Below, in pieces: positions 17,734 to 62,222 of a DNA stretch of 64,000 nucleotides. Position numbers and translations under genes: made by a program. This stretch comes from a virus. Taxonomy: Duplodnaviria > Caudoviricetes. The notes below the pieces were generated by a model, which did not search any database, was not told the origin of the DNA, and saw only the letters and a program-made list of their open reading frames with translations. Positions within the stretch are counted from its first letter, which is position 1. Every line of letters begins with the position of its first letter. The stretch lies in the IMG/VR virus record IMGVR_UViG_3300035208_003581, positions 59,128 through 123,127 of that record. One strand, 5' to 3'.

Positions 17734-18145
17734 GATAGTAGGTGCTCCTCTGTTTGAGGTGTATTTTAACCCTATTTTTTCTAAAAATGGTGTATGGCAA
17801 GAAAAATATAGAGTATTACAAGATCATTATAAATCTAAATATATAATATCTTTATTCTCATATTCTACAAAAGAGCATTATGAAGATGCTATTTATGGAT
17901 ATGTTTTACCTTTTATGAAAGATCTTACATTAAATCCAGAAACATGTTTATTAAAAATAGGTGGTAAATCCGTTGAATGTTGTGAGAGAAATTTTTGTAC
18001 TATGTATAATAGTAAATGCTCTTTGCAATTAGGGATGAGCTTATGTTTCGAATTGTGTGCTGCAGAGTCAATCATCGATGTACTTATCCGTGACATAATT
18101 CGTGGATGGTCAGAGAATAAATATTGGGTAGTTATTAGGGAGTAA
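17714..18145 (+). CDS. Hypothetical Cys-cluster protein
   Basis: ORF coupled between the primase ZBD and polymerase genes; Cys-rich C-terminal half. Confidence 0.5.
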   Translation: MMTQTIKIVGAPLFEVYFNPIFSKNGVWQEKYRVLQDHYKSKYIISLFSYSTKEHYEDAIYGYVLPFMKDLTLNPETCLLKIGGKSVECCERNFCTMYNSKCSLQLGMSLCFELCAAESIIDVLIRDIIRGWSENKYWVVIRE

Positions 18146-18147
18146 AA

Positions 18148-20670
18148 ATGGCTTCAAAAAAAGATATTAATATTCAAGATATGGTATTTGATTTAGGAGG
18201 AGTTGATGTTTCAATTCCATCTTGGATTAAAAACAAAAATTTTAGATGTGCAAAAACTATTGAAGAGGTAAGAGAATACATTGATAAAGCTATTTCAAAT
18301 GGTATTGCAAGCTTAGATACTGAAACTGAAGGGTTAGATACACGTGTCTATTTGAATGAAGAAACAAATAAATATGAAACTGTACATAAAATCGTAGGAT
18401 TTTGTGTTTCAGCTGATATAGATTCAGGTATGTATATACCAATACGCCATAAACGTGGTATAGAACACAATTTAGATATAGACTTGGTTGAAAAGGAAAT
18501 TACTAGATTAGGTGAAAATACATTACTTGTATTTCATAATTCAAAATTTGATTTGGAAATGTTAGAATTTATGGGGAATCCATTATCAATTCTTAAACAC
18601 ACTCAATTTGAGGATACTCAAATTGCTTTATTTATTCGTGATCCTAATGACAAACGTACAGGTTTGAAAATTGCTTCACAAACCCATCTCGGTGTCACTC
18701 AGATTGAACTTGAAGAATTATTCCCAAAAAGTACTACAAATTTAGATTTTTCAGAACTATCTCCTACTGATAATGGAGTAGCTGAGTATGGTTGTTCGGA
18801 TGCATGTTGCACATTGATGTTATGGGAACAAATAAAGTGGGTAGCTGAAAAATATAAAGTATCATATACATTAGAAAAAGCATTGATTGGTCCTTTACGT
18901 CGCATGGAACGTAACAGAGTGTTAATTGATGTTGATTTAATTAAGCAATTAAAAATTGGTGCTGAAGAACGTAGAGAAGAGATTGTGAGACTCTTCTTAG
19001 AAGCTCAGAAACCTTACTGTAATGAAAATGAAACTTTTGAGATATCTTCACCTCAACAAATATCTACATTGCTGTACGAACGAATTGGGATACCTACAGA
19101 GGATATTTTAGAGAAAGGTGAAACTGACCATTTATCTACGAGTAAGAATGCTGTAGATCTTTTGAAAGAAAAGTTTGAAGATCGATATCCAATTTTAGAT
19201 TATATTATTGAATATCGTATGCTTCATAATGTAATTACAAAATTCCATATTCCTATGATTGAGAATGTTGATAGTAATAATGAAGGTAGGTTACAATTTA
19301 ATGCTTTAGTGGCAGATACTGCTCGATTATCATCTTCAAAAGGTAAAGACGGTCATGGATTTTTAGGTATTAATTCCCATGCTATTCCAAGACCTAAAGA
19401 TAATACAAAACCTGAATTTTCAAGATTGATACGTAAGGCTATCAAAGCTCGTCCTGGTTTTGTAATAGCAAAAATAGATTTCAGTGGTGAGGAATTAAGA
19501 ATTGCAACTAATCTTAGTAAAGAACCTAAATGGATTAAAGAATTCAATGAAGGTTCTGGTGATCTTCATACACTCATGTCTATAAATATATTCGGTAATA
19601 TTGATGGTAATAATAGAAGTTATGCAAAGAATGTAAATTTTGCATTGTTGTATGGTGGTGGGCCAGGTGCAGTAAAACGTAATACAAAATTACCTATGAT
19701 CACATGTAAGGATATCGTTAAAAAATATTTTGAAAAAGTACCAATATTGAAGAAATGGATTGATACTCAAAAGAAATTTGCTAAGGCAAATAAAATAGTT
19801 TATTCCGCAATGGGTAGACCGTTTCCATTACCTCAAATGGAATCTGGAGATCCTTCTATAATTGCTTTTGGTGAACGTAAAGCTATAAATTCCCCAATTC
19901 AAGGTACTGGTGCTGATATCATTAAAACATCAATTGTTCGGGTTGATAAGCTATTCCGTGATAAAAATTGGTGGCCGGAACAAGCTCGATTACTTATGAA
20001 TGTTCATGATGAGTTAGTTATAGAATTGAAAAAAGAAATTTTAGAAGAAGCTCTTCCTCTCATTTGTGATGAAATGACACTATTTGGTCGTCAAATGAAA
20101 TGGGAAGTCCCATTAGAAGTTGAACCATTGATAGGTGAATCTTGGTTTGTGAAAAATGATTGGAATAAAATGAAATTAGGTGAAGAAGAAATACCTGATT
20201 TTCTTAAAGGATTTATCACAGTAGATCGTAAATTGAGTGGTGTAGCACGTATCCCAGAGATAAAATTAGAACCACAGGTAAAAAAACAAACCGTGCTTGA
20301 ATCATCACATCTTATATCTAATACTACTATTGATGATAGTGAACCTTTAAATACAGATAGTAAAGATAATAAAGAACCACAACATATTAAACCTCAAATG
20401 AATGAAAGACAAAACTCTATGGTTAATGTAAATCAATTATTTGATATACCAGAAGTATATAAATTTGATTTGACTAGTCCACTAAATACAAGAACGTATA
20501 ATACATTAAAAAACATATGCACATGGGCTTCAACTCCTACTCTTGTACCAGCTTCTACAATTCTTGTTATAAAGAATATGGCAGATGGTAAAGAAATTAT
20601 CGGAGAAAATTTAAATATTCGTGTAGACTTATTAAAGTTTATTGTTTTAGCAGAAACATTTAATTTATAG
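18148..20670 (+). CDS. polA: Family A DNA polymerase with 3'-5' exonuclease
   Basis: Exo I LDTET, Exo II HNSKFD, Exo III YGCSD; motif A DFSGEELR, motif B RSYAKNVNFALLYG, NSPIQGTGAD, motif C VHDEL. Confidence 0.95.
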   Translation: MASKKDINIQDMVFDLGGVDVSIPSWIKNKNFRCAKTIEEVREYIDKAISNGIASLDTETEGLDTRVYLNEETNKYETVHKIVGFCVSADIDSGMYIPIRHKRGIEHNLDIDLVEKEITRLGENTLLVFHNSKFDLEMLEFMGNPLSILKHTQFEDTQIALFIRDPNDKRTGLKIASQTHLGVTQIELEELFPKSTTNLDFSELSPTDNGVAEYGCSDACCTLMLWEQIKWVAEKYKVSYTLEKALIGPLRRMERNRVLIDVDLIKQLKIGAEERREEIVRLFLEAQKPYCNENETFEISSPQQISTLLYERIGIPTEDILEKGETDHLSTSKNAVDLLKEKFEDRYPILDYIIEYRMLHNVITKFHIPMIENVDSNNEGRLQFNALVADTARLSSSKGKDGHGFLGINSHAIPRPKDNTKPEFSRLIRKAIKARPGFVIAKIDFSGEELRIATNLSKEPKWIKEFNEGSGDLHTLMSINIFGNIDGNNRSYAKNVNFALLYGGGPGAVKRNTKLPMITCKDIVKKYFEKVPILKKWIDTQKKFAKANKIVYSAMGRPFPLPQMESGDPSIIAFGERKAINSPIQGTGADIIKTSIVRVDKLFRDKNWWPEQARLLMNVHDELVIELKKEILEEALPLICDEMTLFGRQMKWEVPLEVEPLIGESWFVKNDWNKMKLGEEEIPDFLKGFITVDRKLSGVARIPEIKLEPQVKKQTVLESSHLISNTTIDDSEPLNTDSKDNKEPQHIKPQMNERQNSMVNVNQLFDIPEVYKFDLTSPLNTRTYNTLKNICTWASTPTLVPASTILVIKNMADGKEIIGENLNIRVDLLKFIVLAETFNL

Positions 20671-20678
20671 GAAGTAGT

Positions 20679-21089
20679 ATGCATCGTTTAAAAGAAAGAG
20701 TAGAACAATTGGAAAGTATCCTTGTTGGGGTTGTGAAAGAAAATGATAATCCTCTGTTATCAAACAGATTAGATACTGCTATATCTTTTGTTAAAGATAC
20801 TTCTATGGAAGTGGCAAAGATAGAAAAATTGTTAGAAAATCTTTTAAATGAACTTGGATATAAAAATATATTATCAAGTTCTAAAATAAATGAAATAAAG
20901 TTAAGTTCTGATTTACAAACTGAATTGAGTTTTAATAAATCAAAATTAGCAGATTTAATTCGTAGAGAAAATGAAATAAGTATGCATCAAATGCCACTAG
21001 AATTAAAAGAAGGTATTAAAAAATCAAAAAAAGATTTAGTTGATAAAATTAATAGTTTGGAATTACAATTAAAAATGGTGAAGGAATGA
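20679..21089 (+). CDS. Hypothetical coiled-coil protein
   Basis: ORF with RBS and heptad pattern. Confidence 0.5.
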   Translation: MHRLKERVEQLESILVGVVKENDNPLLSNRLDTAISFVKDTSMEVAKIEKLLENLLNELGYKNILSSSKINEIKLSSDLQTELSFNKSKLADLIRRENEISMHQMPLELKEGIKKSKKDLVDKINSLELQLKMVKE

Positions 21090-21292
21090 AAAATACAATC
21101 ATAACTGCGGTATGTAGTGTTGGAGATCAATTTCCACCACAACATGCATTACAAGGTATCGTTCCAGACCCATCAAAAGAATTTAAAGCATATGAACTTT
21201 ATGAACGGTGGAAGAGACTTTGCTATAAAACAAAGATGGGTATTGGGTGTGAGAAGTGTCAGTTTTTTAAAGTTATTTGGAAATAAATAATT

Positions 21293-21877
21293 ATGATACA
21301 AGATTATATGAGTGTTTGTAATAATTTTGAAATATCAAATGAGCAATTCGAAAAAATTTGGTGTGTGCGTTGTAAAAATACAGAATGTCAGCGTTCTTTT
21401 TCACAATCAGCATGGCTAAAGAGAGTATCTACTCAAGTAGATACTATGTTAATAAATCCTACTATTGTTGATAAAAATGACCCTCAATATGAAGGAATAC
21501 GTAAACAACATTTTGATTGTTTAAATCCACAAAAAGATGGCCCAACAACCACATATTCAATTGCAGATATACGAGAACCAACTAATTTTATTCTAAGTAC
21601 GAGTGACAGTAAAGAAGAATCAAAAAATGTTGAAACAACAAAACATTCACGAAATATTATTATTGAAAATGTTGATGTTGTAGTATCTGGAGATACTATA
21701 TTAGAGAATGTAGATGCAAAATCATTCAATAAGAATTTGAATGAGATATTAAATGAACCAGATACTGTGAGTTTTAATAAGGTTGATGATACTATGAAGA
21801 GTGTACGTACTGAAAGTAAATTTGAAAAGACTATTTTTATAAAACCAGGTGATACTGTAACTATGAGTGGGAAGTAA
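21293..21877 (+). CDS. Hypothetical protein with N-terminal Cys cluster
   Basis: [13 protein letters not shown] motif; low-complexity middle. Confidence 0.5.
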
Positions 21878-21879
21878 TT

Positions 21880-22080
21880 ATGCCAACATACGAATACAAA
21901 TGTTTAAAATGTGGTGAAATTTTAGAAATTGAACAAAGTATAAAAGATGATAAATTCAGTACTCATAAAGAATGTGGTTCAGAATGTGATGGAGAAGTCA
22001 CTAAATTGATTTCAGGAACATCATTTCAACTAAAGGGAACTGGATGGTATGCTACTGATTATGGTTCTCATTCATTGTAA
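21880..22080 (+). CDS. FmdB-family zinc ribbon protein
   Basis: [12 protein letters not shown]...[11 protein letters not shown] signature. Confidence 0.9.
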
Positions 22081-22141
22081 TCCTTTGAAAATACTGCCGC
22101 AAAGGCAGCTTAGAGATATATATGACGAGGTATTTATGGAG

Positions 22142-22309
22142 GGATAGTAACAGATAGTGTGTTGATAACCTATTAATACTTTCTATTAATAGGAGGTGAG
22201 AAGATGTTATAAATGGAGCGAGAAACATATTATGTTTCTCATTGGGAGATACACCCTATGTTAGAAATAACATAGCTAATGTTAATATTTATTAACAGAA
22301 ATGTATCGG
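22142..22309 (+). mobile_element. Non-autonomous IS607-like mini-element with omegaRNA-like 3' part
   Basis: GG at both ends. The first 54 bp are identical to 24163-24216. The 3' ~95 nt are homologous, with compensatory changes, to 61815-61905 and end in GTATCGG. Confidence 0.7.
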
Positions 22310-22317
22310 AGAATACA

Positions 22318-22488
22318 ATGATGAAAAAAACAGGCGATGCTAAACCAGCTAAAATAATAGATACAAATAAAAAAATAGATTTTTGGAATATGAGTGAGCA
22401 AGAACAGAAAAATCTAGCAAATACAATGGGAATGTCTCTTGAAGAATTAAAATTATGGCTTCAGACTAAACCAATTCTAGAACAATAA
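22318..22488 (+). CDS. Small hypothetical protein
   Basis: MMKKTGDAKP... Removing the mini-element restores a GGAGGG RBS before this ATG. Confidence 0.5.
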   Translation: MMKKTGDAKPAKIIDTNKKIDFWNMSEQEQKNLANTMGMSLEELKLWLQTKPILEQ

Positions 22489-22557
22489 TTTACAATATAT
22501 TAAACTGCCTATTCGGCAGTGAATTTATACCGATCTTTAAATATAAGGATTATTGAA

Positions 22558-22935
22558 ATGAGTAAGAAAATATTATTAGATTTTGATGGAGTATGCAATA
22601 CATATAATGGTGAGTATAATCAAAATGTTTTACCACCTATACGTAATGGTCTTGAAGATTTCCTTAAATCTTTAAAAGAATTAGGATATACTATTATAAT
22701 CTTTACTGCTCGTAAGCCTATAAAAAAGATTGTAGAGTGGTTTATAAATTATGGTTTAGGAGATTATATATATGATGTGACAAATATAAAAGAACCAGCT
22801 CAATTATATTTAGATGATAGTGGTATTACATTTAAGGGTGATTTTAATGAATCCTTGAAAACAATTAAGGAATTTAAAACGTATTGGAAAACTTCTTCAA
22901 AATTGAGGTTTATAGCAAGAAAGATTATAATATGA
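22558..22935 (+). CDS. HAD-superfamily hydrolase
   Basis: LLDFDGV, FTAR, K..A.LYLDD motifs. Confidence 0.8.
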   Translation: MSKKILLDFDGVCNTYNGEYNQNVLPPIRNGLEDFLKSLKELGYTIIIFTARKPIKKIVEWFINYGLGDYIYDVTNIKEPAQLYLDDSGITFKGDFNESLKTIKEFKTYWKTSSKLRFIARKIII

Positions 22936-23366
22936 AGGTGAATAAAGTAAAAAAAATTTGGAATCCTAAATTTAAGTCTATAGTTGATTTTTTGAATACC
23001 TATGTTGAACCAGATTCATTGATTTCTATTACTAACATTAAAGAAAAAGATAATTATGTACATGAACTTTTGAAGAATGATTATATGTTGGCATATTTGA
23101 AAAATCATATTTGGTTTTTTTACACTTTTGATATTATAACAACACATATAATCGAAAGAGCATCTGAAGAAAATATTGAAATTTATCTTGAATCTATTGG
23201 TAAATCTTGGTCTTTTGCATATAAATATATTACAAAAGAACGCTTACTGAATTTATTGTGTACGTATAATGTAACTGATTTAATGATTTCTGATATGTAT
23301 TTATATATAAATACTACTATAAATATTGATATTAAACCATCAATTTTAATGAATAATTTCAATTAG
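22932..23366 (+). CDS. Hypothetical protein
   Basis: ORF track; start uncertain. Confidence 0.45.
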   Translation: MKVNKVKKIWNPKFKSIVDFLNTYVEPDSLISITNIKEKDNYVHELLKNDYMLAYLKNHIWFFYTFDIITTHIIERASEENIEIYLESIGKSWSFAYKYITKERLLNLLCTYNVTDLMISDMYLYINTTINIDIKPSILMNNFN

Positions 23367-23368
23367 AA

Positions 23369-23959
23369 TTATTCATCCCAATTCATAGAGCTTTGTATTT
23401 TATAATCAAATGGATTTGCTCTATTGCCTATTGTAGTTGTTAAATAAGCTATTATTTTTAATGGGTTTTCTGATATCTCATTTTCAAAATCTTCTAATGT
23501 ATATTGTGATGGATAATCATGTTGTTTTTTTAGTTGTACTAAAATATCTTCTATATTTAATTCTATTTTTGTTTTAGACTTACCAACAGTTACAGAAGTA
23601 GATATTGAATTAAGAGTATCTTCTATAACATTTCTACCATCTATAGAAGCAATCCCATCTTCGTGTTCATAAAATATACCATTTCTATAGAAGTCATCTA
23701 CTTCACCTATTAGGTGGTCCATTAAATCCTTTGTATTTATTGTTATTGAAAAGCTTTTATCAGCTTGTACATTTTTAATTGTGCTTCTTATAGTGTCATC
23801 TTTATTTGATATATACCCAGATAAAAGGGAATAAATTTCTGTTTCAAGTGCATGAGGGTCTATTTGAAGAGTGTCAGCTAAAGCATGAATGTCCTCATCT
23901 TTAGGATTTGGATGTGTTATGAAGTAACGTTTTATTTGATCTTGTACTGATTCACTCAT
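23369..23959 (-). CDS. Hypothetical protein with N-terminal homeodomain-like helical module
   Basis: Likely start MSESVQ after an AAGGA RBS; FITHPNPKDEDIHALADTLQI pattern. Confidence 0.5.
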   Translation of the reverse strand: MSESVQDQIKRYFITHPNPKDEDIHALADTLQIDPHALETEIYSLLSGYISNKDDTIRSTIKNVQADKSFSITINTKDLMDHLIGEVDDFYRNGIFYEHEDGIASIDGRNVIEDTLNSISTSVTVGKSKTKIELNIEDILVQLKKQHDYPSQYTLEDFENEISENPLKIIAYLTTTIGNRANPFDYKIQSSMNWDE

Positions 23960-24075
23960 TTTAATTTCCTTTATAATTATCATTGTTATTGTCATAATGT
24001 TTATATTTATAAAAAAAATATTTAGAATTTGAAATTTTTTCTGTATACTCAAATGAAACAAAGAGGAGTTATATA

Positions 24076-24168
24076 ATGTTTCCATCAAATAATCTTTTAA
24101 AAGAATACATTGAATCATTAGAAAATATCTCTATTTATGGACACAGAGTTCAAATTATTAGAGGATAG
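24076..24168 (+). pseudogene. 5' fragment of a gene interrupted by a mini-element left end
   Basis: GAGGAG RBS plus MFPSNNLLKEYIESLENISIYGHRVQIIR, stopped by TAG inside the 54-bp repeat. Confidence 0.5.
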
Positions 24169-24216
24169 TAACAGATAGTGTGTTGATAACCTATTAATAC
24201 TTTCTATTAATAGGAG
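24163..24216 (+). repeat. 54-bp exact direct repeat of 22142-22195
   Basis: GGATAGTAACAGATAGTGTGTTGATAACCTATTAATACTTTCTATTAATAGGAG at both sites. Confidence 0.95.
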
Positions 24217-24286
24217 TTCGGATAGGTTACCATAATTATTAACAACTATGGTTAATTTCTACTAATAATTAACAATAAGGTAAGTT

Positions 24287-24865
24287 ATGACGAAATACGT
24301 AAACACAAGAACTGCTTGTAAAAATTTAAATGTACATCCTAATACTCTACGAAATTGGGATCGGGACGGCAAGGTAAGAACGATGCGTACGCCCGGCGGG
24401 CGTCGGCTTTATGATTTATCATCCTTATCCCAATCTAATCGTAGTAAAATTATATACGCAAGAGTTTCTTCAAAAGGACAGAGCAATGATCTTGACTCAC
24501 AAATACAGTATCTTAGAACAAGATATCCAAACCATGAGCTTATCCAAGATATCGGATCTGGTCTCAACTTCAAACGCAAAGGGCTTACAGCCCTTCTGGA
24601 ACGATTGCTGTCTGGAGATGTCGAAGAGGTTGTTATTGCACACCGCGACCGGCTCTGCCGGTTCGGATTTGAATTATTCCTTACCATTGCAGAGAAATTT
24701 AATACCAAAATCGTGGTTCTCGACGATGCACAGCAGTCACCACACGACGAACTCGTCGCCGATTTGCTCTCAATTGTCCACGTTTTCTCCTGTAGGCTTT
24801 ACGGACTCAGAAAATATTCTAAGAAAATCAAAGAAGATAAGGATTTATCCGAACAAAAACAGTAA
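24287..24865 (+). CDS. tnpA: IS607 transposase (MerR-like HTH + serine recombinase)
   Basis: VHPNTLRNWD...RTPGGRRLY, YARVSS, DIGSGLNFKRKGL, HRDRLCRFGFE. Confidence 0.96.
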   Translation: MTKYVNTRTACKNLNVHPNTLRNWDRDGKVRTMRTPGGRRLYDLSSLSQSNRSKIIYARVSSKGQSNDLDSQIQYLRTRYPNHELIQDIGSGLNFKRKGLTALLERLLSGDVEEVVIAHRDRLCRFGFELFLTIAEKFNTKIVVLDDAQQSPHDELVADLLSIVHVFSCRLYGLRKYSKKIKEDKDLSEQKQ

Positions 24866-25916
24866 AGAATTATTTAATAAATACCTGGGGTTATCTCGTT
24901 ATTGGTATAATAAAGGTGTAGAGTATTTGAAAATTCCAAACACTAAGGCGTATATGCCTGAAGTAAGAAAGATTCAATATAATCAACAACATGAGCCGTG
25001 GGCTCTTGATTGCCCTCAGCGAATTAGAGAACATGCTTTGTCATTAGCGTGTCAAGCAGTTAAGAATGCTAAAAAGAAATTTGCAATAACTAAATCATTT
25101 CAGATGGTTAGCTTTAAAAAGAAAAAAGATGTCCGTCAATCCTTTGGATTTGACCGTCAAAGTTTAGGAGGCGACTATGTATTCAAGCAGCTGAAATATA
25201 AAGTTAATTTTTATTCTACTGAGAAATTTGATTCTGAATTAGAAGGAACAAGAATAATTAGAGAAAACCACAGGTGGTTTTTAATAGTTCCAGCTACAAC
25301 ACTTATAAAAATTCCCGATAACCAAAGGAATAATATAGTTGCTTTAGATCCTGGAATCAAAACTTTTGTTACTTTTTATTCTGAATTTAATCATGGTAAG
25401 ATTGGGAGTGCTGATTTTAATAGAATATTTAGACTTTGCTTGTGTTTGGATAAATTAATTTCTAAAATATCCAAAGCAAAGTGTAAAGCTAAGCGCCGCA
25501 TGCGGCGGGCCGCTTCAAGATTACGTTGGAAGATTAAAGACTTAATTAATGAATTACACCACCAAACAGCTAACTTTTTAGTTAAAAATTTTAATGTAAT
25601 TCTTCTTCCAACATTTGAAACGCAGCAGATGTCTTCAAAATTAAATAGTAAATCAGCAAGGAACATGTTAAGTTTTGCACATTTCAGGTTTAAACAATTT
25701 TTAAAGTTTAAAGCGAAAGAATATAACTGTAAAGTACTTGATGTATGCGAAGCTTATACTTCCAAGACGTGTTCTTACTGCGGTGAAATGCAGGAAATTG
25801 GAAGTAAATCTATTTTAAAATGCACTAATTGTGGTGTAAAAGTAGATCGAGATTTAAACGGCGCTCGTAATATTTATTTACGAGCCTTGGCGGTTACGCC
25901 CTTTGGGCTCAATTAA
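24534..25916 (+). CDS. tnpB: IS607 TnpB RNA-guided nuclease with rearranged RuvC
   Basis: ALDPG (RuvC-I), LLPTF at the usual RuvC-II Glu position, CEAYTSKTCSYCG zinc finger, DRDLNGARNI. The start is uncertain and overlaps tnpA. Confidence 0.92.
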   Translation: MSLSKISDLVSTSNAKGLQPFWNDCCLEMSKRLLLHTATGSAGSDLNYSLPLQRNLIPKSWFSTMHSSHHTTNSSPICSQLSTFSPVGFTDSENILRKSKKIRIYPNKNSKELFNKYLGLSRYWYNKGVEYLKIPNTKAYMPEVRKIQYNQQHEPWALDCPQRIREHALSLACQAVKNAKKKFAITKSFQMVSFKKKKDVRQSFGFDRQSLGGDYVFKQLKYKVNFYSTEKFDSELEGTRIIRENHRWFLIVPATTLIKIPDNQRNNIVALDPGIKTFVTFYSEFNHGKIGSADFNRIFRLCLCLDKLISKISKAKCKAKRRMRRAASRLRWKIKDLINELHHQTANFLVKNFNVILLPTFETQQMSSKLNSKSARNMLSFAHFRFKQFLKFKAKEYNCKVLDVCEAYTSKTCSYCGEMQEIGSKSILKCTNCGVKVDRDLNGARNIYLRALAVTPFGLN

Positions 25917-25960
25917 GAGTTCAATGCATTTGTTAACAATTGTTAGCAGAAAAGTAGCAG

Positions 25961-26623
25961 ATTTCTGATATTTGTGTATCAGATGACATTTCTCGTTTAC
26001 TTCCATCTGAAATGATGAAGTTGGTGAATCCGAAATTAAAACTTTTATTCTATAAAGATTTTTATGAAAAATCTTTATTATCATATGAACTGAAAGGTAT
26101 GGAAAAAGAGGGTAAAGGTCCAATAATTATTGCTGTTGATAACTCTGGTTCCATGTCAGGGAATAGAGAAATATGGTCTAAGGCTATTGCACTTACTCTT
26201 CTTGACATTGCTATTAAACAAAAACGTAACTTTGTTCTATACCATTTTAATACTCGTGTGACTTTTACATATGAAAAAATAAAAAATGACTCTGTAGATA
26301 TTGAAAATTTATTTTCAGCTATGGAACACTTTTCAAGTGGTGGAACTTCATTTAAACAAGTTCTTGATTCTGCTTTAAATAAAATGGAACAGGATGAATT
26401 TAAAAAAGCAGATGTTATTTTAATCACAGATGGTGAAGCAGATGATCATGATGCAAAGATGTATAAAGAAAAAGCACATAGGTTAAAAACTACAACATAC
26501 GGTATTGTAATTGGTAATAAAGATTCTGCACGTCAATGTGTTGAGAAATTCTGTGATTCCACATATACATTAAACGATCTAACTCAAGATTCAACTATTA
26601 CTTCAAATATATTTTCTATTTAA
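25961..26623 (+). pseudogene. ViaA-like VWA-domain protein, 5'-truncated by IS607
   Basis: Frame open from the IS junction: ISDICVSDDISRLLPSE...GPIIIAVDNSGSM...GGTSF...ILITDG (MIDAS motifs). The N-terminal part is absent. Confidence 0.8.
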
Positions 26624-26685
26624 TTGACAATCATTTTATGTTCTGTTATAAAAAATTGATAGTTTAATAATTACTATAGGAGATT

Positions 26686-26940
26686 ATGATGGATTTATTA
26701 AAGATTACTTCTGTAACTCAATATGACCAGAAAACAGAAGAAAATTTAAAACTTGCTGTTGATATGTCCGATATTGCTCGTATTGAGCCATGCCATATTG
26801 ATGACGAGCATGATGGTAGTGCTATATACCTGAAAAGTGTAGAGAAATCTGAATCTATTCAAAATAAAGTCCCTATTTTGGTTTTAGAACATTACGATGA
26901 CCTAATTAAAGAAATGTCAGACCATCAATATTTTCTTTAA
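26686..26940 (+). CDS. Hypothetical protein
   Basis: AGGAGA RBS, TTGACA upstream. Confidence 0.55.
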   Translation: MMDLLKITSVTQYDQKTEENLKLAVDMSDIARIEPCHIDDEHDGSAIYLKSVEKSESIQNKVPILVLEHYDDLIKEMSDHQYFL

Positions 26941-26997
26941 AATTACCTAACATACTTGTATATTAAGATGTAACAGATAACTTCATAGGAGAAAGTT

Positions 26998-28920
26998 ATG
27001 AAATCGTCTTTTTATGCAGTATTGATTGCTATCAGTCTAATCGGTTGTGGTCAAAATGTAGTGACCTCTGAACCAAATACAGAGTCATGTACTATCCAAG
27101 GTACAGTTATGATATGCCCAGATGGGACATCTTATGACATGGCTCAAACAAATCCAGTTTGTACGATCAAGCATATTAGCACACAAGTAGCTATTGTGTG
27201 TGACGATGGTACAAGAATAAATGTATATGACGGTGCTGATGGTCAAGACGGTTCATCATGTACAGTATTGGATAATCTAAACGGTACTTATACAGCATCA
27301 TGTACCGATGGTACTTCAATTACTTTTGAAGATGGTCAAAAAGGTGATGATGGTAATTCATGTTCGGTATATTCTACTCCTGCTGATAATACAATGACCA
27401 TTACTTGTACTGATGGTACTGCTATTACCTTTTATAATGGTAAAGATGGTCAGGATGGTGTTGATGGTCAGGATGGTCAGGATGGTCAGGATGGTCAGGA
27501 TGGTGTTTCTTGTACAATTAATAATAACTTTGATGGTACACATACCATGGCATGTACTAATGGCACTTCTATTTTGTTACATGATGGTGCTGATGGTCAG
27601 GATGGTTCTGATGGTCAGGACGGTGATTCTTGTACTGTTCATGATAATTTGAATGATACGTATACGATTTCATGTACTGATGGTACATCAGTCACTTTTA
27701 GTAATGGAGCCGATGGAACCAATGGTACGAATGGTACTAATGGGACAGATGGTGTAGACGGAACAAATGGTACAAATGGTACAAATGGTACATCTTGTAC
27801 AGTTCACGATAATTTAAATGATACCTACACAATTTCTTGTACTGATGGTACGAGTGTGACAGTACATGATGGTGAAGATGGTGTTAATGGAACTAATGGA
27901 ACAAACGGTACTAATGGGACAAACGGTACTAATGGAACTGATGGAACCAATGGGACTGACGGGACAGATGGTTATACTTCATTAATCCGCACTGATTCAA
28001 CCACAGACTGTTATTATGGTGGTGATTTAGTTCTATTCGGTATTGATACAGACCGTGATGGGTATTTAGATGATGATGAAGTTCAAGATTCATATTTGAA
28101 TTGTTTCACAGATGGTAGTCAGTATAAGGTATATTATGGTAATTTTACAGTATATGATTATTTAGACCTTATGTATATACGTGAGTATAATCGTATCGAA
28201 GGCACATTGACTATAACTAATACTGCAATTACAGTTATTGAACTACCTAAATTAGAGTATGTAAATGCAATTGCAATTTCAGGTAATTCAGTACTAACAA
28301 CAATAAATTTCCCAGTATTAAAGCAAATAGGTGATATTGGTATCACAGGTATGGGTAGTATTGGTATTTTAAGTATTGATTTAAATCAAAATTTAACCAG
28401 TGTCCATTTTGATGCCTTAGAAGTTCTTGTTGGTTTTACAAGCAGAAGTGCTTGTAGTCATACTGAAGCAAAAACACAGATACTTATTCAAAGAAATTTC
28501 CGTCTTGAAGAGATAGATACATTTCATAATGTTCAGCTTGGAAATATAAAAATTTGTATGAATGATAACCTTCAGGTAATAAATGGCTTTGAGAATGTTG
28601 GAGCTAGTATGGATATTAATGGTTCCGTATATGATTATCGTTTTTACTTAGATAATAATCCTGTACTAGTTGATTTAATAACTTCATTTACAGATAAAGA
28701 ATTAGAAACATTGGAGCTACTACGTAATGTATCATTAAGTTTTGAATCTGCTTCATTAGTTGGTGAAGCTCACTTAGTGTCTTCTAAACTGAATGTTTGG
28801 AATGATTCTCCAGTATTAGCATATTCACGTTGTGATGCTTGCACCATAACACGGTCAGTAGACATTGTAAGTGCTTTCCAATCTCCTAGCGTAGCATCTT
28901 GTGATCAAGATTGTCCATAA
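26998..28920 (+). CDS. Lipoprotein with interrupted collagen-like repeats and C-terminal L-domain-like solenoid
   Basis: Lipobox LIGC; (GQD)n and (GTN)n runs alternating with SCTV..N...YTISCTDGT modules; DTDRDGYLDDDEV motif; LRR-like C-terminus. Confidence 0.75.
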   Translation: MKSSFYAVLIAISLIGCGQNVVTSEPNTESCTIQGTVMICPDGTSYDMAQTNPVCTIKHISTQVAIVCDDGTRINVYDGADGQDGSSCTVLDNLNGTYTASCTDGTSITFEDGQKGDDGNSCSVYSTPADNTMTITCTDGTAITFYNGKDGQDGVDGQDGQDGQDGQDGVSCTINNNFDGTHTMACTNGTSILLHDGADGQDGSDGQDGDSCTVHDNLNDTYTISCTDGTSVTFSNGADGTNGTNGTNGTDGVDGTNGTNGTNGTSCTVHDNLNDTYTISCTDGTSVTVHDGEDGVNGTNGTNGTNGTNGTNGTDGTNGTDGTDGYTSLIRTDSTTDCYYGGDLVLFGIDTDRDGYLDDDEVQDSYLNCFTDGSQYKVYYGNFTVYDYLDLMYIREYNRIEGTLTITNTAITVIELPKLEYVNAIAISGNSVLTTINFPVLKQIGDIGITGMGSIGILSIDLNQNLTSVHFDALEVLVGFTSRSACSHTEAKTQILIQRNFRLEEIDTFHNVQLGNIKICMNDNLQVINGFENVGASMDINGSVYDYRFYLDNNPVLVDLITSFTDKELETLELLRNVSLSFESASLVGEAHLVSSKLNVWNDSPVLAYSRCDACTITRSVDIVSAFQSPSVASCDQDCP

Positions 28921-28943
28921 TATAAATCAAGTATAGAGGTGGT

Positions 28944-29492
28944 ATGATGAAAATTGAAAATTTACAACCTGGCATGTTTGTAGCAATAGGTTCTAAATTG
29001 GATATGTCTCAAGACACAGTATCAAAAGCATTAATACTCTGTGTTGGTAAAGAATTAAAACAGACTAAAGAAGATGTAATTCTTATTGAAAATCCAAGGT
29101 CTGTTATTGTGCTACTATCACCATATGGTGAAGAATTTCCAGAAGTTATTAGAGATATTCTTAATATGGATGTATATGATGCTATTATTTCATTACGATC
29201 AAGTTCACGTCTAATAGCACGTACATATTTAGCAAATCAAATACCTATGTCTTGGCCAAATTGGATTATTGAAAAACAAAAAATTCTACCTGAAATTGAT
29301 TTAAACAGTTCTAAGAATGAATTAAAACGCCGAGTGAGTGAAGAAATCCCTCACCTATTAAATGAACTTGATAAGATAGGTATACAAGCATCATCTTCAA
29401 GTACAACTCCACCAGGGTCAATTACACTGCAATTATGTGATATTAAAAAGTGGATTGGTATAACAAAAAAATTAATGCATCGATATAATTAG
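28944..29492 (+). CDS. Hypothetical protein
   Basis: GAGGT RBS, 182 aa. Confidence 0.55.
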   Translation: MMKIENLQPGMFVAIGSKLDMSQDTVSKALILCVGKELKQTKEDVILIENPRSVIVLLSPYGEEFPEVIRDILNMDVYDAIISLRSSSRLIARTYLANQIPMSWPNWIIEKQKILPEIDLNSSKNELKRRVSEEIPHLLNELDKIGIQASSSSTTPPGSITLQLCDIKKWIGITKKLMHRYN

Positions 29493-29920
29493 TCTTCATT
29501 TTCTGGTATTGGTGGGACTTGTCGTGGTTCAGGATCTTCATCCTTCATAGGTAAATTGTCTATAATGGTTATTTTCTTTGTTGTTTCAGGGATATCTTTT
29601 TTAGACATTGCAGCACTTACAGTAGAAGATATTTTATCTGTAAGTGCTTGTGGGAGTGAAGCTTTTAATTTATCAGCACCATTATGAGCAAATTTTCCTA
29701 CATTATTAAACAAACCAAATGATGTTGCATTCCCAATAGTAAAATATGCCCAAATTTCAAATATGTTTATCAATGTACTTGCTTGTTCTTTTGCATTCAT
29801 TGCAGTTTTAACAATAATATCAAATGCATAATACGTGAGTGTAGTAGCAGCAATTTCAATAGCTACAGCAATAAGAAATTTACGAGTGAAGAAACTGAGG
29901 ATGAGAGATTTGCAATTCAT
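29489..29920 (-). CDS. Two-TM membrane protein (holin-like)
   Basis: TRKFLIAV followed by two hydrophobic segments and a charged tail. Confidence 0.4.
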   Translation of the reverse strand: MNCKSLILSFFTRKFLIAVAIEIAATTLTYYAFDIIVKTAMNAKEQASTLINIFEIWAYFTIGNATSFGLFNNVGKFAHNGADKLKASLPQALTDKISSTVSAAMSKKDIPETTKKITIIDNLPMKDEDPEPRQVPPIPENED

Positions 29921-30649
29921 GTCGAACTCCTTTGAAATAATGTTCTAAATATATTGTAAAAATAATATATTATTGTATAGTGTTGTTGAACCTTAATTTG
30001 AAAGGACTTGAATATGACTACTAAAATCAAAGTTAACAAATCTATGATGAAAAAATCCATTACAAAAATTTCTCTTGGAAATGTATGCCGATATACAGAA
30101 TCAGTTTTAAAACAAGAATTGGATACATTATGTATTGCAGGTAATGGGTTTAACCATATCATTCCAAAGAAAGAATTAAGTTCTGGAGATGCCTGTTTAT
30201 TATCGGCAGTATTGCAGGGTAATCATGAGATAATAAAAGTGATAACACTTTTTAAACAGATGGAAAATCATTTGTTTGTTTGGATTGAGACTTATTTTAA
30301 AACTGATCAAATTGGACAAATAAAAATTGCAGTATCTTCTTTACCAGAATTGAAGTATCAATTGAAAAGTTCAATTGATACTTTACGTAAAAAAAATATC
30401 TGTTTAAAATAATTTTTCTAAAATGGATATGGATCATGACTAGTCAAAAAAAGTGATGAAAGAGTAAAGGAACTTCTCACAGAAAATTGTGAGTTAAAAG
30501 TTCAAATAATGGAATTAAATAAAAAGATAAGAGAACTTGAATGTAAAGTTCAAACTATGAAGAACTTTGCAATGTCAATACTTGATCAATAAACAGTTTG
30601 TATACTCATTATATGTTAGTGTCTTTAACATTTAAGAGGGAGATGAAAA

Positions 30650-50772: not shown

Positions 50773-52024
50773 GTCAATTACCACCGACCTCGTCGGTGGC
50801 TTGTAGCTAAATATCTGCTACTATAAGCGGATTGACAACCGCTCGTTCCTCATGAGTGTACCCACGAGGAATAGATCGAGAAGCTATATTGATAGCTCCA
50901 TTACGATCTGCGTGGTCTTGATGACCACAGTTTTTACAAATAAAATCAATACCTTTTCGATTACTTTTATGAACGTATCCACAAACTGAACATTCTTGAG
51001 AAGTAAACTTCGGATCTACATATTCAACGGAAATGCCTTTGGCCGCTGCTTTGTATTCTACGTAAAACTGGAGTTGAGCGAAGGGCCAACGAGAGATAGT
51101 TGCTCGATTTTCTTTAGACATTCGTTTAGCTTTCTTCTCGGATCCTTTCCTAATACCTCTCAAGTCCTCGAAAACGAGAGTTGAAACGTTCATCTGTTCA
51201 GCAAAGTCTACCAATCTCCTAGAGACAACGTGTAGGTGCTGTTGTGTTACGGATGACTCCTTCTGGCTTAACCTTTTAAGCAACTTCTTTGAAGAAGGAG
51301 TACCAACACTAGCGACTTTACTTCGAACCTGACGAATACGCTTTCGCTTCTCGTTCAACGAAGAACCTGAAACAAAAAGAGTTTTTTTTGGTGTCCAGAC
51401 AGTGCAAATATTTTTAATCCCACTGTCTATACCTGCGACCACACCCGAAGATTTAGGTTCTGGGATTTTTACTTTAACACAGAGGCAAATATACCAGGAT
51501 TTGCCAATCTTTTTTAGTTTAGAATCGCACCACTTACCTTCGGGGATGGACTTGGATTGATAAATAGATGGAACGTTAAATACTGTAAAACCTTTACGTT
51601 CCGTAATGTTAAAGTCTTTAGTCCAACACAGTGGAACGGATTGCTTCTTGTATACAATTAACTTGTGTTTCTTTTTCCTCGCAGCCTTGTAGGAACCAAC
51701 CACTGCTCGGAAGAGAGAACAGACAACTTGAGATGGAAGATCAAACATTCCTCGAATAGTAGAGTAAAACTCACCGTGGAGCTTCACAGGTGATTGGATT
51801 AACTGTCTTTGATAAATAATCTCAGATAACCAATTTGCAGCTTCTAAATAGTTGGAACAAATAGATTCCAACTTGGGATGAGAGGATGTAAGTTTTAACT
51901 TGACTGTTCGTATACTATTCATGTATATTATTTTAACAGTTAAAAAAGAGAATATCAACAACTATTTAACAAAAAGGACAGCATTTCCTCCACTAACTTC
52001 GTTGGTGGTTTCCAATGCTGAAAC
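50773..52024 (-). mobile_element. IS200/IS605-family TnpB-only (IS1341-like) element
   Basis: Left-end hairpin CCACCAACGAAGTTAGTGG after TTAT; right-end hairpin CCACCGACGAGGTCGGTGG followed by TTGAC; no target duplication. Confidence 0.88.
50807..51922 (-). CDS. tnpB: TnpB RNA-guided nuclease (canonical RuvC)
   Basis: GIDSG, VFEDL, TSQECSVCG...CKNCG, HADRNGAINI. Confidence 0.95.
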   Translation of the reverse strand: MNSIRTVKLKLTSSHPKLESICSNYLEAANWLSEIIYQRQLIQSPVKLHGEFYSTIRGMFDLPSQVVCSLFRAVVGSYKAARKKKHKLIVYKKQSVPLCWTKDFNITERKGFTVFNVPSIYQSKSIPEGKWCDSKLKKIGKSWYICLCVKVKIPEPKSSGVVAGIDSGIKNICTVWTPKKTLFVSGSSLNEKRKRIRQVRSKVASVGTPSSKKLLKRLSQKESSVTQQHLHVVSRRLVDFAEQMNVSTLVFEDLRGIRKGSEKKAKRMSKENRATISRWPFAQLQFYVEYKAAAKGISVEYVDPKFTSQECSVCGYVHKSNRKGIDFICKNCGHQDHADRNGAINIASRSIPRGYTHEERAVVNPLIVADI

Positions 52025-61560: not shown

Positions 61561-61588
61561 TTGACATAAAGTTAAAATGTGACATAAT
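61561..61588 (+). promoter_or_regulatory. Sigma70-like promoter with extended -10
   Basis: TTGACA-N16-CATAAT, with TGn before the -10. Confidence 0.5.
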
Positions 61589-61615: not shown

Positions 61616-62222
61616 ATGAAGTATTTAACCTACATCAAGAAAAAGGAGGTGTGTTGTGCACGAACATTATTGGCCGTAGCTACGCTACGGAACCGTAAAT
61701 GCAACACCAAGCTAATCCCCACCCTAAGATGCTGCGTTAATGGTTTTGACAGAATTATAGACACAAAAAGTCCATTGATCCGAGAACCAAGGAGTGGACT
61801 ATACAAAATGTCTAGCGCAAAACATAAATGTTTTGCTTTGGGAGATACCCCCTGTGTTAGAAATAGCACAGCTAAAGTTAACTAATGTTAGCTGAAACGT
61901 ATCGGCTCATGTATCACTGGAAGATCAAGTTGATATGCTTGAATACCCTATTGATAATTTTGATTTGATTGACATTACTCCTTATAATGCCCAAGAAATA
62001 TTAGATGATTTAGAGAGATTCTACAGGCATCTTGATAAAGTCATAGATTACGATAAAGATGGTGATGTTATTGACGAATTTATAGGAATACAAAACAGTC
62101 TTAGTGATGCTTTATCAAAAGATAAAGATGCTATTTTAAAAGAAATCCTTTCTTTTAAAGAAAAATTTAATCTCAAGCAAATCAAAGAAGATATCAAAGA
62201 ATTGAAATCTATTCTCAAATAA
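61616..62222 (+). pseudogene. Gene interrupted by the 259-bp insert
   Basis: Reconstructed MKYLTYIKKKAHVSLEDQVDMLEYP...; GGAGA RBS before 61616. Confidence 0.6.
61647..61905 (+). mobile_element. Non-autonomous IS607-like structured insert
   Basis: GG at 61645-46 and 61904-05. The 3' ~90 nt are homologous to 22217-22309. Precise removal fuses 61616-61646 in frame with the ORF ending at 62222. Confidence 0.7.

Follow-up and report, generated by a model that had tools for sequence, protein, structure and literature searches.

The segment at positions 22142-22309 of the window, by which we mean the whole 64,000-nt stretch of DNA that was analysed, is a non-autonomous element that an internal deletion has produced from an IS607-family transposon. 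Its identity as an IS607 mini-element (hereafter the mini) with an ωRNA, or reRNA, scaffold is close to certain. We further read it as a guide-only passenger of an IS607 TnpA/TnpB system, an explanation that we consider probable rather than secure. The window comprises bases 59128-123127 of a 123-kb IMG/VR virus record, and as CheckV estimates the completeness of this record at 27%, the virus is a huge phage. Near-identical DNA is found in two metagenome DNA runs, one from a landfill (2018) and one from groundwater (2022).

Anatomy of the mini-element

The junctions of the mini read GGAGG/GATAG on the left and GTATCGG/AGAAT on the right (the slash marks the junction), with GG on both sides. 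The left crossover core dinucleotide lies at 22142-22143 and the right one at 22308-22309, both on the + strand. In an alternative left register the GG is 22141-22142 and the left end begins at G22143; in other multi-copy members of the family, GG stands immediately 5' of the first conserved base. Counted by the GG cores, the mini measures 164-165 nt between both GG and 166-168 nt including them. Its right end finishes in GTATCGG, and a terminus of ATCGG or TTCGG is found in more than 30 family members. There is no target-site duplication beyond the GG core, and no terminal inverted repeats joining the two ends are present among the 25 longest pairs listed. In elements with a serine-recombinase tnpA and a tnpB, the left and right termini are homologous to those of the mini.

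The left-end block (22144-22195, + strand) consists of 52 nt that are 100% identical to 24165-24216, beside a coding IS607 element in the same window. With the GG included the identity extends over 54 nt (22142-22195 against 24163-24216), and the inner 34-mer of the block has only 3 occurrences in the 123-kb record. The block contains a sigma70-like promoter, with TTGATA at 22162-22167, a spacer of 16-17 nt and TATTAAT at 22184-22190. The match is at consensus level, in AT-rich DNA where a generic sigma70 scan gives no more such sites than expected, so our call rests on conservation in relatives: TTGACA-17-TAnnAT is found at the matching position in the left ends of L008, L010, L011, L015, L089 and L096. 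This conservation suggests that the promoter may be active. The TTAAT/TTAAC repeats in the block are probable TnpA sites.

The block leads into the relic of a tnpA ribosome-binding site and start (22191-22209, + strand), with AGGAGG at 22191-22196 and ATG TTA at 22204-22209. The distance from the start of the left end to this ATG, about 60 nt, is the same as in L015, L008 and L089, and tnpA starts with ATGTT in L008, L011, L015 and L089; of the gene itself, ATG-TTA-stop is all that the mini keeps. There follow the ~29 terminal codons of tnpB as a dead relic (22209-22295, + strand; INGARNILCFSLGDTPYVRNNIANVNIY up to the stop codon), which begins just past the RuvC-III aspartate and lies behind an in-frame stop. 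Over 26 residues this relic is 88% identical to the C-terminus of the TnpB encoded at metagenome locus L015 (E 2.6e-8). Because the tnpA start relic, at its usual spacing, runs straight into the tnpB relic, one deletion has joined the promoter and leader of tnpA to the scaffold, with the loss of all that lay between codon 2 of tnpA and the ~29th-last codon of tnpB. The deletion junction, at which the left-end block is fused to the tnpB terminus and right end, lies within 22197-22211. The mini is without a functional tnpA and a functional tnpB. The identity of the left end, the dead frames and the homology of right end and scaffold together bear out the proposal that this is a protein-less IS607 derivative.

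The guide-RNA scaffold

The 3' half of the mini had been proposed to be a TnpB ωRNA scaffold with a pseudoknot just before the guide, and our results support this proposal. We gathered tnpB relatives from IMG/VR, metagenomes and genomes, compared their 3' ends, and built a covariance model, R1, from three sequences: the mini, a second gene-less copy in the record (copy C) and L015. R1 scores 117.9 bits at the scaffold (22212-22307, + strand), whose helices are P1 (22220-22228/22232-22240), P2 (22244-22246/22254-22256), P3 (22256-22263/22268-22275) and P4 (22280-22286/22291-22297). The loop of the GGG/CCC hairpin P2, GATAC at 22248-22252, is complementary to GTATC at 22303-22307 near the right end, as had been noticed from the letters alone, and these two segments form the pseudoknot. 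The scaffold extends across the tnpB 3' end into the right end and terminates 2 nt short of the element boundary. Both the position and the structure by which an ωRNA is recognised are found here, namely the location at the tnpB 3' end and right end and a covarying pseudoknot.

The compensatory changes that the initial annotation described in three hairpins are present between the mini and copy C, which are 79% identical without gaps over 22232-22309 and 61828-61905 (BLAST E 4.8e-16 over element positions 76-168). With L015 added, RNAalifold gives 30 pairs, of which 6 have two-sided changes. The covarying pair GTTAC/GTAGC that had been pointed out in the coding IS607 falls at the same alignment columns. 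We tested the pseudoknot and P2 in a plain MAFFT alignment of 20 ends that was not fitted to the model. In this alignment 99% of cells are paired between the five loop bases and the pentamer that precedes the terminal GG, against 16-42% in controls with a slid pseudoknot. Two-sided changes occur in 4 of the 5 pairs, and none of 500 shuffles attains the observed values. Among the variants are GATTC/GAATC, GATCC/GGATC, GAACG/CGTTC, GATAA/TTATC, GATAG/CTATC and GTTAC/GTAAC. P2, the 3-bp hairpin that presents the pseudoknot loop, covaries too, and since the loop/tail pairing and the presenting hairpin both covary, the contact is a true H-type pseudoknot. P1, P3, P4 and the pseudoknot helix, which together make up the four helices in the stored model, also covary, with two-sided changes in 25 of 30 pairs when counted in an alignment fitted to the model. 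The initial annotation had made its case dependent on covariation that stays significant in a larger alignment, and with 20 ends it does.

A scan of the genome and its relatives with a covariance model had also been suggested. In the 123-kb record R1 finds four places only, which are the mini, copy C, a further copy D and the right end of the coding IS607. Its matches in other loci fall on the segment that spans the tnpB 3' end and the right end, in more than 20 independent IS607 elements, most of them with tnpA upstream. A weak match at L014:714-805 was considered as another mini and rejected, as it is the 3' end of another tnpB-like gene.

The 98-nt scaffold of the mini is 85% identical to that of L015, 78% to that of copy C and 62% to that of the resident coding IS607, and the TnpB proteins of L015 and of the resident are 39% identical. 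Judged by these identities, the scaffold half derives from an IS607 lineage other than the resident one, a point absent from the initial annotation. No cognate tnpB was found in the 123 kb, which CheckV estimates to be 27% of the genome. Given the low identities of both scaffold and nearest TnpB to those of the resident, loading by the resident TnpB is uncertain, and any use of TnpA and TnpB in trans would be more complicated than the initial annotation assumed.

By analogy with ISXfa1, the predicted guide would be the ~16-17 nt of flanking DNA at 22310-22326 (+ strand; AGAATACAATGATGAAA), and it would span the downstream gene's start codon together with the spacer. When the guides of the four copies are compared with the record, no other site within 3 mismatches is found beside a plausible TAM.

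Insertion site and target preference

The mini had been described as inserted in a ribosome-binding site, and the sequence confirms it. The flanks read TGGAGG/GATAG on the left and GTATCGG/AGAATACAATG on the right. Removal of the mini leaves GGAGG(G)-AGAATACA-ATG, and the occupied site, ATCGGAGAATACAATG, still contains GGAG, both as claimed; this GGAG stands upstream of the next gene because the right-end GG joins a flanking AG. The retained GGAG suggests that the insertion may be nearly neutral. The gene downstream is a 56-aa ORF (22318-22488, + strand), and its GGAGG ribosome-binding site is the insertion target. It belongs to no Pfam or PHROG family, and a search against 5.8 billion proteins returned a single match, a 55-aa entry with 100% identity that is most likely this phage's own gene.

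GAGG stands at the left junction of the mini, copy C, L008, L015, L093, L103 and L104. Of 41 distinct insertion sites, 18 have the start of an ORF of at least 40 aa no more than 20 nt past the right end, mostly at 5-11 nt, against 19% in a random-position control (p about 3e-4). This frequency of right ends that precede a start codon makes landing in ribosome-binding sites a habit of the family and not a peculiarity of the mini. The GGAGG ribosome-binding motif is the preferred target of this IS607 clade and is probably also its TAM. The TAMs AGGAG and GAGGG, reported for other IS607 TnpBs, agree with such targeting (PMC11061315).

The initial annotation had proposed a search for an empty-site allele, and we found none in phage records, relatives of the flanking proteins, 5.8 billion proteins or the contigs of the two metagenome runs. 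A blastn search with window positions 21300-23400 against 50,697 phage records gave no match, and no IMG/VR relatives were found for the flanking 194-aa and 125-aa proteins. The Logan contigs from landfill and groundwater are identical over 18000-30000 and contain no joint skipping 22144-22309; contigs of this kind drop rare variants, so the absent joint says nothing about excision. Among the sequencing runs listed as containing this sequence, none is of RNA.

Related elements in the same record

The resident coding IS607 (24163-25960, + strand) was delimited by domain and covariance-model matches. It begins with the 54-nt block shared with the mini (24163-24216), followed by a second left-end-like module at 24220-24286, which starts with GGATAG as does the left end of L089. 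Two such modules therefore stand in tandem (24163-24286), with GGATAG at the start of each. The tnpA gene (24287-24865, + strand) encodes Resolvase and MerR HTH domains, and the tnpB frame (+ strand), open from 24411 and continuing to 25916, encodes OrfB_IS605 and Cas12f1-like TNB domains. The ωRNA scaffold lies at 25857-25958 (+ strand; R1 E 1e-6 and 2.8e-6). The right end reads GTAGCAG, with a CAG and not a CGG terminus, a feature shared with the closest relative, L089; the element has either an AG core dinucleotide or mismatched ends. At a distance of 28 nt beyond this right end (region 25955-25990) we observed the motif TGTATCAG, which resembles the right-end tail.

Which of the two modules is the resident's own left end is not discriminated by pairwise left-end alignments, all of which show 50-62% identity. 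As the second module follows at the usual distance from the resident tnpA, the shared 54-nt block may be a separate solo end and not the left end of the coding element. Such a solo end may belong to the mini's family, with the coding element having inserted into it or next to it. Read as a solo end, the block is uninformative on the compatibility of the mini with the resident TnpA. Logan contigs over window positions 24214-28024 are ~1.3-1.6x as deep as neighbouring contigs in both runs; the raised stretch reaches well past the IS607, and a second strain or a relative may share this segment.

The exact architecture of the mini has one copy only in the 123 kb. Its parts recur separately: the left end at 24163, and the right end in copy D (97% identity over 59 nt) and copy C (78%). 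Copy C is a more decayed gene-less element of 259 bp (61647-61905, + strand; R1 104.4 bits) with the flanks GGAGG/ and ATCGG/. It is inserted at AAGGAGG/ in an ORF starting at 61616, above which lies a strong sigma70-like promoter (61561-61588). Without copy C, this ORF continues in frame into 61906-62222. The left boundary and 5' part of copy C hold weak relics only. The residues SIDPRTKEW in its left part can be read as a TnpB RuvC-I relic, as this short stretch matches one tnpB position in several relatives, and there is a weak TnpA HTH relic (NPHPKMLR*W, E 0.16).

Copy D (G000:5170-5259) lies outside the window; it is the last 59 nt of the mini that it matches, and it is without P1 and half of P2. 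In the same region (G000:C1:4584-5259, or L003:884-1559) a left-end-like motif, identical to that of the mini at 28/34 positions, lies 33 nt before a gene for a 174-aa protein. The right end of copy D comes directly after this gene and 9 nt before the next one (DUF5659). Homologues of the 174-aa protein, at 36-58% identity, occur in other huge-phage and metagenome contigs, and in three IMG/VR loci (36-55% identity) no right-end relic was found beside them. The 18-mer TTAGCAGAAATGTATCAC at window positions 16662-16679 matches the right-end tail at 15/18 positions, which could be chance or a very short relic.

Gene-less minis in other genomes

Searches of IMG/VR with strict right-end patterns gave 0 matches, and a looser pattern anchored on the pseudoknot found minis. 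The record IMGVR_UViG_3300038679_000357, here G001, is a 255-kb phage or provirus that is 97% complete. It holds two minis of ~280-290 bp (L119:2576-2860 and L122:2773-3060, both on the - strand), which are 94% identical and flanked by GG...GG, one of them directly before a tRNA gene. We found no IS607 tnpA in G001 and no cognate tnpB, the nearest tnpB being only 23% identical. The P1 of both minis has changed into a non-coding hairpin capped by a UUCG loop.

Of 15 scaffold copies in the deltaproteobacterial MAG G006, 5 are without tnpB: L155 (G006:C40:~71100-71297), L143, L138, L145 and L148. Two copies of ~195 bp are flanked by GG...GG, and one of these minis lies between rpmJ (L36) and rpsM (S13), where the right-end GG rebuilds the rpsM ribosome-binding site. 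L114 is a further scaffold copy without tnpB. Gene-less IS607 minis recur as a class, which the initial annotation had not recognised. Mobility in the gene-less state is seen only for these analogous minis in G001 and G006.

Comparison with known systems

PATE-like elements of the IS200/IS605 group are protein-less, keep their ends and the ωRNA scaffold, and are present in several copies alongside coding elements (Meers et al. 2023, PMC10055086). The mini resembles them in that it is protein-less with both ends and the guide scaffold kept, so that transposase and TnpB are needed in trans. PATEs, with hairpin ends and a TAM/TEM code, are moved as single-stranded DNA by a Y1 HUH transposase, whereas the mini is of the serine-recombinase IS607 type, with double-stranded DNA, a GG core and no hairpin ends. 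Unlike PATEs it also keeps the tnpA promoter directly before the scaffold. We rejected a classification as a PATE proper on account of the associated transposase, which has Resolvase and MerR HTH domains. The mini is an IS607 counterpart of the IS605 PATEs, to which it would be analogous in function, and not a new kind of system.

The reRNA of the IS607 element ISXfa1 has a right end with CGG, the TAM GGG and a 17-nt guide past the right end (Yoon et al. 2023, 10.1101/2023.08.09.552727), and its pseudoknot between a hairpin loop and the guide-adjacent segment is required for activity (10.1101/2023.08.09.552727). The mini is similar in the overlap of the scaffold with the tnpB 3' end and right end, in the CGG terminus, in its short pseudoknot beside the guide, and in its target or TAM of GGG or AGG. 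ISXfa1 is a coding element with a 144-nt scaffold and a pseudoknot loop ~130 nt from the guide, whereas the mini has ~96-110 nt of conserved scaffold with the loop ~58 nt from the guide, and the two cannot be aligned by Rfam models.

With regard to the transposase, IS607 TnpA requires the GG core, and ends of ~60 bp suffice for excision (Zedaveinyte et al. 2023, 10.1101/2023.11.20.567912). In the engineered CboIStron mini-IS, the ends alone are excised and integrated by TnpA in trans (10.1101/2023.11.20.567912). That element was made in the laboratory and carries a group I intron in its left end, while the mini is natural, free of an intron and has a left end of 52 nt. We also rejected the possibility that the mini is an IStron, given its size of only 166 bp and the lack of an intron family in the Rfam searches; neither RAGATH-18 nor a group I intron was found at gathering threshold in the window or at E <= 5 in 21900-26200.

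RAGATH-18 IS607 reRNAs have the Shine-Dalgarno-like TAM AGGAG or GAGGG, and 36% of their copies do not adjoin tnpB (PMC11061315), which hints at orphan guides of the same kind. The RAGATH-18 reRNA differs in being 187 nt long, in lying wholly downstream of tnpB and in belonging to another RNA family. In the literature searched, we found no description of natural gene-less IS607 minis with a guide scaffold.

These comparisons reveal no new principle, and the mini is best seen as an extension of known TnpB biology. IS607, which uses double-stranded DNA and a serine recombinase, sheds its genes as IS200/IS605 does, and keeps precisely the promoter and the guide scaffold. This retention argues that the RNA, and not only the DNA ends, is selected in orphan copies. 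Across ~40 insertion sites the elements tend to enter GGAGG ribosome-binding sites, part of which is rebuilt by the right end, and as a result their guides cover gene starts. The combination of promoter, ~100-nt scaffold and guide is a compact natural cassette for testing the use of foreign guides by nucleases of the TnpB/Fanzor type. It also suits the question of guide-driven homing between co-infecting huge phages.

Proposed mechanism and alternative explanations

As a guide-only passenger, the mini might work as follows. The left-end promoter, which normally drives tnpA, would start a transcript ~10-25 nt before P1 that consists of scaffold, guide and downstream mRNA. A compatible serine TnpA could excise the mini and reinsert it at GG, and precise excision would leave the donor joint ...TATGGAGG-AGAATACAATG. 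A compatible TnpB with the mini RNA would cut the empty site, which reads GGAGG followed by AGAATACAATGATG..., and would spare the occupied site, in which the guide is preceded by ATCGG. The mini would then be restored or spread through recombination with an occupied phage genome. That the mini is currently active in trans in this way is conceivable, and we would put it at slightly below an even chance.

The most serious alternative, which we nevertheless consider unlikely, is an inert fossil: a full-length IS607 of the L015 type would have inserted and later have shrunk in place by one deletion, with the remnant neither mobilised nor serving as a guide RNA. The architecture is present in one copy, the empty site was not found, and the contig contains no cognate tnpB. 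The sister copies C and D are visibly decaying. Intact helices might reflect only the youth of the deletion, and the compensatory changes among the mini, copy C and L015 may predate the loss of a working tnpB. However, the deletion spared exactly the left end, the promoter and the whole scaffold, including ~50 nt beyond the right end of ~60 bp required by TnpA (10.1101/2023.11.20.567912). Although the reading frame is dead, the two GG cores, the helices and the 5-bp pseudoknot have survived, with one pair in P2 as an ambiguous exception. The left-end block is 100% identical to its second copy, which implies a recent event. Furthermore, scaffold-keeping minis have multiplied in G001 and G006, and in G001 the P1 segment is now a non-coding UUCG hairpin.

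We regard it as very improbable that the mini has been domesticated, either as a promoter or 5' leader that controls the 56-aa gene or as a fixed guide against competitor phages that lack the insertion. The promoter-like left end does read into the scaffold and the downstream gene, the guide covers the start of that gene, and homing between co-infecting phages has been discussed for OMEGA systems (PMC13565253). The element is also identical in the landfill (2018) and groundwater (2022) metagenomes, but both may be the source of this same assembly and so are not independent. Relatives by which conservation at the site could be gauged were not found in the phage-record, IMG/VR and protein searches. 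Finally, the idea that the region is not IS-derived at all but a structured phage RNA (a terminator, a riboswitch-like leader or an intron fragment) with a chance likeness to IS607 ends is hardly credible, for although the region is AT-rich and hairpin-rich and matches no Rfam family at threshold, the homology to tnpB 3' ends is highly significant for protein as well as for RNA, a coding IS607 stands beside an identical left-end block, and there is no group I intron or RAGATH-18 match.

A broader extension of the guide-only passenger reading, which we offer as speculation and think improbable, is that gene-less IS607 minis form a recurrent guide-only selfish class of huge phages and bacteria, which works with borrowed TnpA and TnpB and serves phages as a homing or exclusion cassette. 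If this were true, each guide-only mini would consist of a tnpA promoter joined to an ωRNA scaffold and would land in ribosome-binding sites, so that the guide always reads a gene start, and its TnpA and TnpB would come from unrelated IS607 copies or the host. Phages would thereby gain RNA-guided homing or exclusion against co-infecting genomes without the insertion.

Other features of the window

The window contains a second tnpB, of the IS605 type, at 50807-51961 (- strand). It encodes 383 aa with OrfB_IS605 and Cas12f1-like TNB domains and is about 25% identical to the IS607 tnpB. Two hairpins at 22093-22116 (+ strand) and 22497-22524 (- strand) resemble the type I-F CRISPR repeat of Rfam CRISPR-DR4, with E-values of 0.08 and 0.004 and scores short of the gathering score. 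The 123-kb record has no other CTGCC...GGCAG hairpins, and these two flank the mini and the 56-aa ORF in inverted orientation. These hairpins may be solitary repeat units or plain terminators.
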